64,000 nt of DNA from the IMG/VR virus record IMGVR_UViG_2522572099_000001, positions 8,283 to 72,282 of that record; one strand, written 5' to 3'. Shown here piece after piece: positions 35,619-37,261 of the stretch. The DNA comes from a virus. Its lineage: Duplodnaviria; Caudoviricetes. The stretch's first letter is position 1. Every line of letters starts with the position of its first letter. Made by a program: the position numbers and the translations under genes. A model generated the notes under the pieces. It was given only the letters and a program-made list of their open reading frames with translations. It was not told where the DNA came from and ran no database searches.

Positions 35619-36893
35619 GTGTCGACCATCGCCATCATCGGCCATGGCCGCTCGCCCGAGGGCAAGGGCTGGGGACCGCTGATCGACGGTTGCGACATGG
35701 TGGTTCGCATGTGGGACTGCGCCTGGCAGGCCCAAGGCGACTACGGCAGCAGATACGATTATGGCCTGATCGAAGCGCATCCGGCCATGATGGTGCCCTT
35801 CCAGAAGAACAACCGGCGCCGGCCGGCCCGCGGCTGGATCGCATCGAAGCTGCATCGTCCGGAGCGCTGCGGCTTGCCGCCAAAATGCGAACTGGTCGAC
35901 CAGGAGCCATGGAACGAGATCGGCAAGAAGCTCGGCGGCATCGGCGCCACCGGCCGGCTCCAGTTCACGCGCGGCACGATCGCCACCTGTTGGGCGATCG
36001 AGAAAGCGCCGCGCGGCAGCACCATCGTCTTGGTCGGGTTCGACAACATCGTCGCCGGCAGGACGCTGGAGCTCAACCAGGCCTTTGCGCCGATCTACCA
36101 GCGCAATCCCGGCACATTCTCGTTCGGTGCTTACACAGGGGGCGTCAGCAAGGCCGGCAACCACGACTTCGCCGTCGAGTTGCCGGTCATGCAGCACCTT
36201 GCCGCCAGGTATCACGTCCGGCTGGTCACGGCCGGCGAGATCTGGCCGTCGACGCCGGACGCACTGCCGATCCCTTCCGACTGGAGGCCTGAGCCTGTGA
36301 AGACCGCGCTCATTCTTGGCGATGCCGCATCGGTCCGCGACGATGCCGCGGCCGCGCTCAAACTGTTCACGCCGACGGCGATCGCTGCCGCCAACAACAT
36401 CGGCATCGAATGGGAAGGCAAGCTCGACTACTGGTTCACGCTGCATCCCGGCGCCTGCATCGACTGGATCGGCATCCGTGACGCGCTGTCGCGTCGTCTC
36501 AAGGCAGGGCGAAACAAGCCTGAAATATGGGCGCACAAGGCCGCCAACGGCATCGATCGCCACACGCCCGATTGGGGCGGCTCGACCGGCCTGCTCGCCG
36601 CCAAGGGCCTGCTCGAACTCGGCTATGAGCGCATCGTGCTCGCCGGTGTGCCGATGGACAGTTCGCCGCACTTCTACAGCGGCCAGCCCTGGCGTCAGGT
36701 GGAGCGCTACCGGCGCGCCTGGCAGGAACATCTGCCGGACCTCGCGCCGTTCGTGCGGTCGATGGGCGGCTGGACGAAGGATCTGCTCGGCAAGCCCGAT
36801 CCGGAATGGCTAGGCGTGTTGATTTCGGCTCCCTCAAAGGAGGTCGAGAAAATTAGCATGGGTCAGGATGAGGCTGTCCACAGCCTCGCTTGA
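35619..36893 (+). CDS. Two-domain protein: GT29 sialylmotif-like domain plus GT42/Maf(DUF115)-like domain
   Basis: IAIIGHG.S....G..ID..D.VVR...TRG...LVGFD; second ALILG.A.SV...AN...STG.......LGY.RIVLAG.PM...HFY. Confidence 0.6.
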   Translation: MSTIAIIGHGRSPEGKGWGPLIDGCDMVVRMWDCAWQAQGDYGSRYDYGLIEAHPAMMVPFQKNNRRRPARGWIASKLHRPERCGLPPKCELVDQEPWNEIGKKLGGIGATGRLQFTRGTIATCWAIEKAPRGSTIVLVGFDNIVAGRTLELNQAFAPIYQRNPGTFSFGAYTGGVSKAGNHDFAVELPVMQHLAARYHVRLVTAGEIWPSTPDALPIPSDWRPEPVKTALILGDAASVRDDAAAALKLFTPTAIAAANNIGIEWEGKLDYWFTLHPGACIDWIGIRDALSRRLKAGRNKPEIWAHKAANGIDRHTPDWGGSTGLLAAKGLLELGYERIVLAGVPMDSSPHFYSGQPWRQVERYRRAWQEHLPDLAPFVRSMGGWTKDLLGKPDPEWLGVLISAPSKEVEKISMGQDEAVHSLA

Positions 36894-36923
36894 CTTCGCC
36901 AGCGTTGTAACCAATATGGCACC
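36890..36923 (+). promoter_or_regulatory. Promoter of RNA locus overlapped by operator
   Basis: TTGACT-N16-CAATAT; operator GTAACCAATATGGCACC 36907-36923; very similar to the minus-strand segment at about 26447-26480. Confidence 0.6.
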
Positions 36924-36934
36924 AACAAGAGTGT

Positions 36935-37227
36935 CCCGCCGCTTCGTTCATGGGCATCTGCACCATTGACTGCTGGCGATAGGCGGGCGCCAGGATGCCA
37001 AGGCCGGAGCAGGCGGCCGTTTCATCCTGGCAAGGAACCCTGAGAGCGCCGGTACACTCCCCGGCCGTGACCATGCCTGTTTCCGGTGTACCCGGGCATG
37101 GAGGCGATAACAGAAAACCGGCGGGCACGGCTCTCCAACAGGAGGCTCCAAGCCCGACAGTTTCAGATGTCCTCCCAAGGACAAAGACGGCAGCCATCGT
37201 GAGCGGCTTGACTGCTCGAACGGCGGG
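36935..37227 (+). ncRNA. Large structured ncRNA candidate (~290 nt)
   Basis: Closing helix CCCGCCG(C)TTCG/CGAACGGCGGG; nested helices 36989/37031, 37042/37135, 37071/37101. Confidence 0.55.
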
Positions 37228-37261
37228 CCGGGCCATTGCGACAGGCCTGGGCCAAAAGTTT

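Follow-up and report, generated by a model that had tools for sequence, protein, structure and literature searches.

Phage tRNA clusters are now re-read as kits for translation takeover and for evasion of tRNA-targeting defences. In phage T4, the species 1 and species 2 RNAs (rnaC and rnaD) are stable, non-tRNA molecules encoded in the tRNA gene cluster on the same strand; host RNases release them from a common precursor, and neither has an assigned function. To our knowledge, the non-tRNA RNAs that travel with phage tRNA clusters have gone unexplained since these two species were described. The GOLLD and ROOL families of Rfam are large, conserved, multi-domain RNAs of several hundred nucleotides. 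HDV-like ribozymes fold as a nested double pseudoknot (P1-P2-P3-P3'-P1'-P4-P2') and self-cleave at the 5' edge. HDV-like theta ribozymes lie beside viral tRNA genes, and a role in tRNA maturation has been proposed for them (PMC10879173).

We examined positions 36935-37255 of a 64,000-nt window of phage DNA (the whole stretch that was analysed, to which coordinates refer unless another locus is named). A preliminary description of the sequence had taken this region for a single ~290-nt multi-helix RNA with a possible pseudoknot, leading a tRNA-like locus. We consider it probable that the region is instead the front of a many-gene RNA precursor cut into modules, and that one of these, which we term module A (37043-37160, plus strand), is a new stable RNA. 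Module A resembles the T4 species 1 and species 2 RNAs, compared here by description only, as a small non-tRNA RNA among phage tRNA genes on the same strand; it differs in host group, in a fold defined by covariation that likely includes a pseudoknot, and in a precursor processing that we infer. With GOLLD and ROOL it shares the character of a phage-borne, structured non-coding RNA near tRNA genes, but its unit is ~117 nt rather than several hundred, the stretch around it is a mosaic, and Rfam holds no match. Module A is also akin to the theta ribozymes as a small, likely pseudoknotted RNA directly beside tRNA genes; in our own reading, however, its helices follow one another in an order that disagrees with the nested double pseudoknot, and it gives no Rfam ribozyme hit.

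The record that holds the window is a Mesorhizobium-type phage of 72,282 bases with direct terminal repeats, in which the 36935-37255 stretch is present once. We assign the host group as rhizobial because the nearest related locus is found in a Mesorhizobium loti contig and a matching IMG/VR provirus. A late gene precedes the stretch and two tRNA-like genes come after it, and the promoter ahead of it is conserved and carries an operator; a gene of 447 codons has its end at 36893, and 37529 is the start of a small helix-turn-helix gene. The two tRNA-like genes lie downstream on the same strand, in keeping with the tRNA setting originally described. The promoter-like stretch (36890-36924, plus strand) consists of TTGACT (36890-95), a 16-nt spacer and CAATAT (36912-17), hexamers that we assigned by eye and that presumably agree with the alphaproteobacterial consensus, and it is overlapped by the operator-like word TTGTAACCAATATGGCACCA (36905-24, plus strand). 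BLAST matched 36890-36924 in four loci (L002, L015, L019 and L020), and 36875-36924 is the sole part of the region that aligns to the M. loti prophage (80% over 55 nt). A strict sigma-70 scan called no promoter at 36890-36924. With up to three mismatches allowed, the operator-like word TTGTAACCANNNTGGCACCA is present at 13 places in the window, where 0.04 would be expected, and several of these are perfect palindromes. Together with the four matching loci, this count supports the proposal that the stretch has its own operator-overlapped promoter. The operator palindrome, TTGTAACCA-N3-TGGTTACA with variants, is distributed over 13 sites in the window (e.g., 21317-36, 23961-80, 48185-204 and 36905-24) and is probably where a single phage regulator binds, one that controls the RNA cassette as well.

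Behind this promoter, only 37043-37160 recurs. When three sub-parts were compared by BLAST with all fetched loci, the match was confined to 37038-37170, and the flanking segments 36925-37040 and 37160-37262 gave only two short chance matches. At the genome level, 36925-37262 matched none of 401 host-family genomes and 2 of 202 genus genomes, there only in module A or its 3' half. In the M. loti prophage, the flanking genes and the promoter are shared with the window, but the interval between them holds a tRNA-Met and unrelated sequence. For a second provirus (G003, locus L015), alignment to the window begins only at 37037, with 77% identity; its promoter is followed by a tRNA-Met and ~490 nt of other sequence ahead of module A. 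The segments on either side of module A, 36925-37042 and 37161-37261, are lineage-specific in the sequences searched. The 5' leader (36925-37042, plus strand) contains a local stem, CCCGCC/GGCGGG, and a long hairpin at 36989-37031, and folds at -52.0 kcal/mol (z -1.85). The 3' spacer (37161-37261, plus strand) has three hairpins, runs from the junction between ACAG and UUUC to AAAAGUUU just 5' of a mini tRNA, and folds at -39.7 kcal/mol (z -1.61); its first hairpin resembles, by eye only, one in L015. In the minimum-energy fold, leader positions 36929-36946 pair with 37042-37060, the 5' end of module A including a conserved loop, which could mean that the module is masked in the precursor or could be chance.

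All six pairings listed in the preliminary description exist in the sequence at about the places proposed, and they fare very differently. The long leader hairpin, GCCAGGATG/CATCCTGGC with inner GGCCG/CGGCC, is borne out with an ensemble probability of 0.998, computed from the window sequence alone. The closing helix (36935-46/37217-27), on which a single domain would depend, does exist, with 11 pairs and one bulge; forcing it costs only 2.8 kcal/mol over an optimum that lacks it, so that a larger fold taking in the flanks may form in this one phage, and a 5'-3' duplex of equal strength arises in 23 of 500 shuffles. Its ensemble probability, however, is 0.042, and both of its strands (the 3' one in the spacer) fall in parts without a homologue. 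The whole 341 nt folds at -151.2 kcal/mol, somewhat better than shuffles (z -2.19 on the plus strand and -0.87 on the minus strand), so that its folding energy is only mildly unusual. The 11 pairs, their low cost, the shuffle share and the plus-strand z are what a single ~290-nt RNA of the GOLLD/ROOL sort would have in its favour, with module A as its core and the peripheral domains specific to each lineage. We regard that account as improbable: the 15 other copies of module A have entirely different flanks, lying for example 10-41 nt past a tRNA in L022, L029 and L031, and there is no Rfam hit. Because the 118 nt of module A alone are kept in relatives, amid quite different neighbors, we see no case for a single closed domain of ~290 nt. 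As read from these comparisons, the stretch is a patchwork of modules with one conserved 118-nt core.

Copies of module A were collected by pattern scans of a viral collection and one of a metagenome collection; loci were sorted by extra motifs and then with a covariance model, R1, which gives the window copy 118 bits. Most of the loci that the pattern searches brought up were chance matches. Because exact words from the block with the highest conservation served as seeds, the resulting set under-represents distant relatives. R1 recovers 16 distinct full copies at 81-141 bits from phage, prophage and soil-metagenome DNA (the window, L015, L017, L019, L020, L022, L026, L029, L030, L031, L035, L036, L071, L123, L153 and L155). 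Among 118 metagenome pattern loci, five matched R1 strongly, one of them duplicating L029, and 113 did not; the last viral scan yielded 22 new loci, two of them true copies and 20 chance matches. Two further pattern hits, L021 and L023, were rejected as the sequence there reads as coding. Locus L018 holds only the 3' half (34 bits), immediately 5' of a mini tRNA-Gly. Whole-genome searches with R1 (E <= 0.001) gave matches in 3 of 151 Mesorhizobium genomes (a full copy in G453, a half copy in G569 and the false L152), in none of 151 genomes of the family sample and in 2 of 151 of the order sample; on these counts, a host non-coding RNA or an attachment-site copy was rejected. L152, considered as a divergent copy at 29.7 bits, was dropped because it lies inside an outer-membrane protein gene (OMP beta-barrel, Pfam E 4.9e-18), and low-scoring R1 hits are for that reason unreliable; neither of two other weak hits, L181 at 28 bits and L002 at 14.8 bits, entered the copy count. 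L180, one of the hits in the order sample, and its near-twin L183, at 40 bits each, fall within a phage-like region, in a non-coding spacer of 390 nt, and are, to judge from their sequence, a divergent variant of module A whose 5' half is of doubtful homology. The conserved blocks of the family are GCGCCGGYACACUCCCCGGC, GUUUCCGGU, AUGGCGA and AAACCGGC, all of them present in the window copy, and 45 columns are invariant in a 14-copy MAFFT alignment (A2).

Module A corresponds to no known family in the collections searched. At the gathering score, a cmscan of the window against Rfam found tRNA only, with nothing in the stretch; at E up to 10 over 36700-37600, all that was added to tRNA was a pair of chance hits below threshold, both lying outside the core. 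This Infernal comparison bears out the earlier failure to match the stretch to a family. The GOLLD and ROOL covariance models were unmatched in the window at the gathering score and also at E up to 10, and at the latter cutoff neither the RNase P models nor the Rfam ribozyme families hit the stretch. ARAGORN and the Rfam tRNA model called no tRNA within 36935-37255. Two relationships to housekeeping RNAs were considered and rejected. The closing helix adjoining a hairpin, together with a tmRNA in L020, had suggested a tmRNA relative; ARAGORN and Rfam found no tmRNA in the window, a three-frame translation showed no tag-like frame ending in AA-stop, and none of four host tmRNA genes was matched by R1 (the best score, 10.3 bits, fell at another place in the locus). 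The word ACAGAAAACCGGC resembles the 3' strand of P4 of RNase P RNA, but host rnpB shares only short words with module A, such as ACAGAA..CCGGC (by eye). Among GenBank phages, blastn gave no match to either 36850-37540 or the L022 copy, and among plasmids it gave none to module A; a full-text literature search likewise brought up no account of it. By these searches, module A is a new RNA family, missing from Rfam 15, from the phages of GenBank, from plasmids and from the literature found.

Three helices of module A covary. Hairpin H1 (37066-37106, plus strand) stands on a short base stem and carries the loop GUUUCCGGU on the stem 37071-79/37093-101, which is the previously listed pairing CCATGCCTG/CGGGCATGG; its ensemble probability is 0.93, and it is upheld by covariation in relatives, with 6 of 8 pairs changed on both sides in the 16-copy model-fitted alignment. 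The H1 stem reads CCAUG/CAUGG, CCACG/CGUGG, CCCG/CGGG, CCAAG/CUUGG or GGGC/GCCC around a constant loop. In the gamma/delta hairpin (37122-37156, plus strand), CGGGC/GCCCG closes GGC-UCUCC/GGAGGCU with the loop AACA; 3 of 5 gamma pairs and 4 of 7 delta pairs are changed on both sides, and 97.5% and 97.3% of cells, respectively, are paired across the 16 copies. L031, L071 and L123 have a longer hairpin at the tip, and L018 has the gamma/delta half on its own. The 5' hairpin, alpha (37046-37068, plus strand), pairs GCGCCGG with CCGGC-GU around a conserved 8-nt loop, UACACUCC. Five of its seven pairs are invariant in the 16 copies, so that it shows no covariation; it is predicted by RNAalifold and by single-sequence folds of the window, L020, L022, L029 and L155 copies, and L180 and L183 have a different local hairpin in its place. 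Words of the GAGUG type, complementary to the UACACUCC loop, occur near it in several loci and were judged too short to mean anything.

The covariation exceeds that of shuffled alignments. RNAalifold on the plain MAFFT alignment returned the 5' hairpin and the two-part 3' hairpin, with six pairs showing double changes. With H1 added, the unfitted MAFFT alignment of 14 copies has 8 doubly changed pairs against 4.7 +/- 1.1 when shuffled; 5 of 500 shuffles reach 8, and sliding the partners leaves 1-4. The model-fitted alignment of 16 copies has 13 against 5.2 +/- 1.4, a number that none of 500 shuffles reaches, and slid partners give 2-5. These main counts were repeated after L152 had been removed. 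The copies represent a few close lineages (effective sequence number 1.39) and are therefore less independent than the shuffle statistics imply. About 21 G-U cells would read A-C on the opposite strand, which fixes the strand of module A. Single-sequence folding of the module is ordinary (z -1.53 to +1.00). An apparent covariation of GGAG 37100 with CUCC 37133, noticed by eye, was discarded, as the alignment shows an indel there instead. The preliminary description had named a lack of covariation among homologues as one of the things that would count against its reading; covariation is seen in module A only, the flanks having no homologues in the sequences searched.

Two of the originally proposed pairings do not survive in relatives. 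In a 17-row alignment (A3) that still included the later-rejected L152, 63.5% of the GAGAGC/GCTCTC cells are paired, the 3' strand of this helix being part of a local hairpin that covaries. The proposed pseudoknot, GGTACAC/GTGTACC, is paired in 59.5% of cells of the same alignment, with 4 of 7 pairs broken in most copies. Jointly the two do no better than shuffles, 254 of 500 of which reach the observed share of paired cells. The stretch nevertheless likely contains a pseudoknot, with other partners. Module A holds four invariant CCGG words in a span of 75 bp. Because these segments are palindromic, two partner assignments are possible. One combines alpha with a candidate pseudoknot, beta, in which CCGGU of the H1 loop (37083-87) pairs with ACCGG (37117-21; beta as a whole 37083-37121, plus strand). 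Here 96.4% of alpha cells and 98.8% of beta cells are paired in the 16 copies, with 4 of 5 beta pairs invariant. The other consists of the previously listed GCCGGT/ACCGGC and the remaining pair, at 91.3% and 78.8%, respectively. GCCGGT/ACCGGC is thus possible, but its U-A end pair is broken in 6 of 16 copies and the alternative assignment pairs better. Neither alpha, beta nor the rival CCGG pairings covary among the 16 copies. In L180 and L183, the first two segments are replaced, CCGG is kept only in the loop and in the downstream segment, and the U-A pair of beta has become C-G, the sole compensatory change in beta, contributed by one variant at 40 bits in two near-identical genomes. Because L180 and L183 retain just those two segments with a U-A to C-G change, we favor an H-type pseudoknot at 37083-87/37117-21 as the probable arrangement.

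The invariant CCGG words also bear on whether the stretch works as RNA at all. It might be a DNA-level site (attachment, origin or protein-binding CCGG boxes) or encode a small protein, to which long open frames on both strands and the proximity of one copy to an integrase gene (175 nt) would lend some color. These frames comprise 93 codons on the plus strand (36995-37276) and 210 and 151 codons on the minus strand; the minus-strand frames run through the tRNA genes, and Pfam and PHROG searches of the frames found no family match. The copies of module A are 115-126 nt long and differ by 1, 2, 7 or 8 nt; these differences are not multiples of three, and module A is therefore non-coding, which agrees with the original view that the stretch has no credible ORF. 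The compensatory changes and strand-specific G-U pairs fit RNA, rather than protein or duplex DNA. Of the readings weighed here, we give a protein or DNA-level role the least credence.

The sequences place the family beside tRNA and tmRNA genes in rhizobial-type phages and prophages. Ten of the 16 full-copy loci have a detected tRNA or tmRNA, which in all ten lies on the strand of module A. A tRNA-Met precedes the module by 10 nt in L031 and by 35 nt in L022, and in L029 a series of fourteen tRNAs ends 41 nt upstream. In L020, module A begins ~30 nt past the same operator word, with a permuted two-piece tmRNA directly 3'. In the window, it is followed beyond the spacer by a mini tRNA-Gly-like gene (37262-37330, plus strand), with an acceptor stem, T arm and UCCA end recognized by eye, that is 93% identical in L015 and 80% in L018 by BLAST. 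Next comes a tRNA with a long variable arm and an odd anticodon loop (37342-37434, plus strand), called tRNA-Ser (aga) by ARAGORN and scoring 37.9 bits with the Rfam tRNA model. Its counterpart in the related provirus (L015:1512-1610, minus strand) is reported by ARAGORN as 'tRNA-???' with a four-base anticodon, gtcc.

Border words were also tallied. Seven of the 16 copies have RGUUY, which presumably agrees with the enterobacterial RNase E preference, no more than 22 nt upstream, and four have it at the 3' junction, the chance of a hit being ~0.06 per interval searched; these counts, which take in sequences that are related, are not independent of one another. Five of the 16 copies lack the border word. 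The frequency of such RNase E-like words, the location of module A in RNA cassettes with tRNA or tmRNA on the same strand, and the 3' half that alone directly precedes the mini tRNA in L018 together make up the argument for the main rival to a stable RNA. According to it, module A would be purely a cis-acting leader or spacer that aids the folding or processing of neighboring tRNA, mini-tRNA or tmRNA precursors and is then degraded. Yet the 45 invariant columns, with conserved loops displayed on covarying stems, represent more constraint than a spacer needs; moreover, the neighbor varies (Met, Ile, Ser, Thr and Gly tRNAs and tmRNA), as does its distance, from 0 to 490 nt. We judge the cis-acting role unlikely, even as the foremost competitor.

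For a stable RNA released from the precursor, which we prefer, we infer from sequence how module A would be transcribed, processed, knotted and put to use. The repressor-controlled promoter at ~36890-36924 would drive one precursor with many RNA genes, in the order leader (36925-37042), module A (37043-37160), spacer (37161-37261), mini tRNA-Gly and long-arm tRNA. Host RNases (P, E and Z) would cut this precursor at module borders, many of which bear RGUUUC, and the released module A would persist as a small, stable RNA that binds, through its conserved loops and junctions, a partner: a protein, or else the machinery of translation or of RNA processing. Within it, the H1 loop GUUUCCGGU would most likely pair with the ACCGG just 5' of the third hairpin to form the H-type pseudoknot; less likely, the C-rich loop would act as an anti-Shine-Dalgarno seed.

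A bolder proposal is that module A is itself a ribozyme and, by self-cleavage, punctuates the precursor at RGUUUC junctions or close to them. Its compact, probably pseudoknotted fold with invariant junction and loop nucleotides, and its position at module borders in transcripts with several RNA genes, would suit such a role, and small ribozymes, the theta ribozymes, flank phage tRNA genes (PMC10879173). The searches at E up to 10 found no Rfam ribozyme family; the helix order, in our own reading, is unlike that of HDV-like ribozymes; and the border word is missing in five copies. We hold self-cleavage to be very improbable. Slightly wider, and still a long shot, is the idea that module A represents a new functional class of RNA, rather than a passive passenger: either a small ribozyme that would cut the tRNA/tmRNA precursor of the phage at RGUUUC, or an RNA that would self-associate by way of the four palindromic CCGG segments and, in infection, bind part of the translation or RNA-processing machinery of the host.

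What had been a vague structured region is now a defined RNA family that can be searched for: it has set borders and a covariance model, it comprises 16 copies, its fold is supported and its proposed pseudoknot can be put to the test. This family accompanies initiator tRNAs, odd tRNAs and a phage tmRNA in rhizobial phages, and the long ORF-free stretches of such cassettes are to be read as strings of exchangeable modules. Should module A prove to be catalytic or to bind the translation machinery, phage-host conflict would gain a new player; otherwise, the module would be one more orphan RNA motif.

Several further elements were observed around the copies. The tmRNA of L020 (L020:977-1290, plus strand) is circularly permuted and in two pieces, with the tag VANDNYAPMAIAA according to ARAGORN, and scores 95 bits with RF04321 and 82 bits with RF01849; by eye it has a G-U third pair in the acceptor stem, and it starts ~170 nt after the operator-bearing promoter. 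The integrase gene near one copy (L155:11081-12274, minus strand; PF00589, E 4.4e-12) ends 175 nt beyond module A. On the metagenome contig L035, the alphaproteobacterial sRNA ar35 (L035:223-366, minus strand; RF02346, 121.8 bits) lies 1.3 kb from the module A copy. In nine of the 16 copies (L022, L026, L030, L031, L035, L036, L071, L123 and L153), module A is immediately followed on its 3' side by a second shared module; this second module starts with AGCGAGGCGCGG and, where the contig is long enough, ends with GCCUCGAA, followed by a U-rich word of the GUUUC/AUUC type. A small hairpin, typically GCCC-NNNN-GGGC and followed in most copies by an A/C-rich word ending in CAGUU(U), recurs downstream of modules in L017, L029, L031, L035 and L123 and at L002:5440-5470; closing several cassettes, it may be a processing or termination signal.
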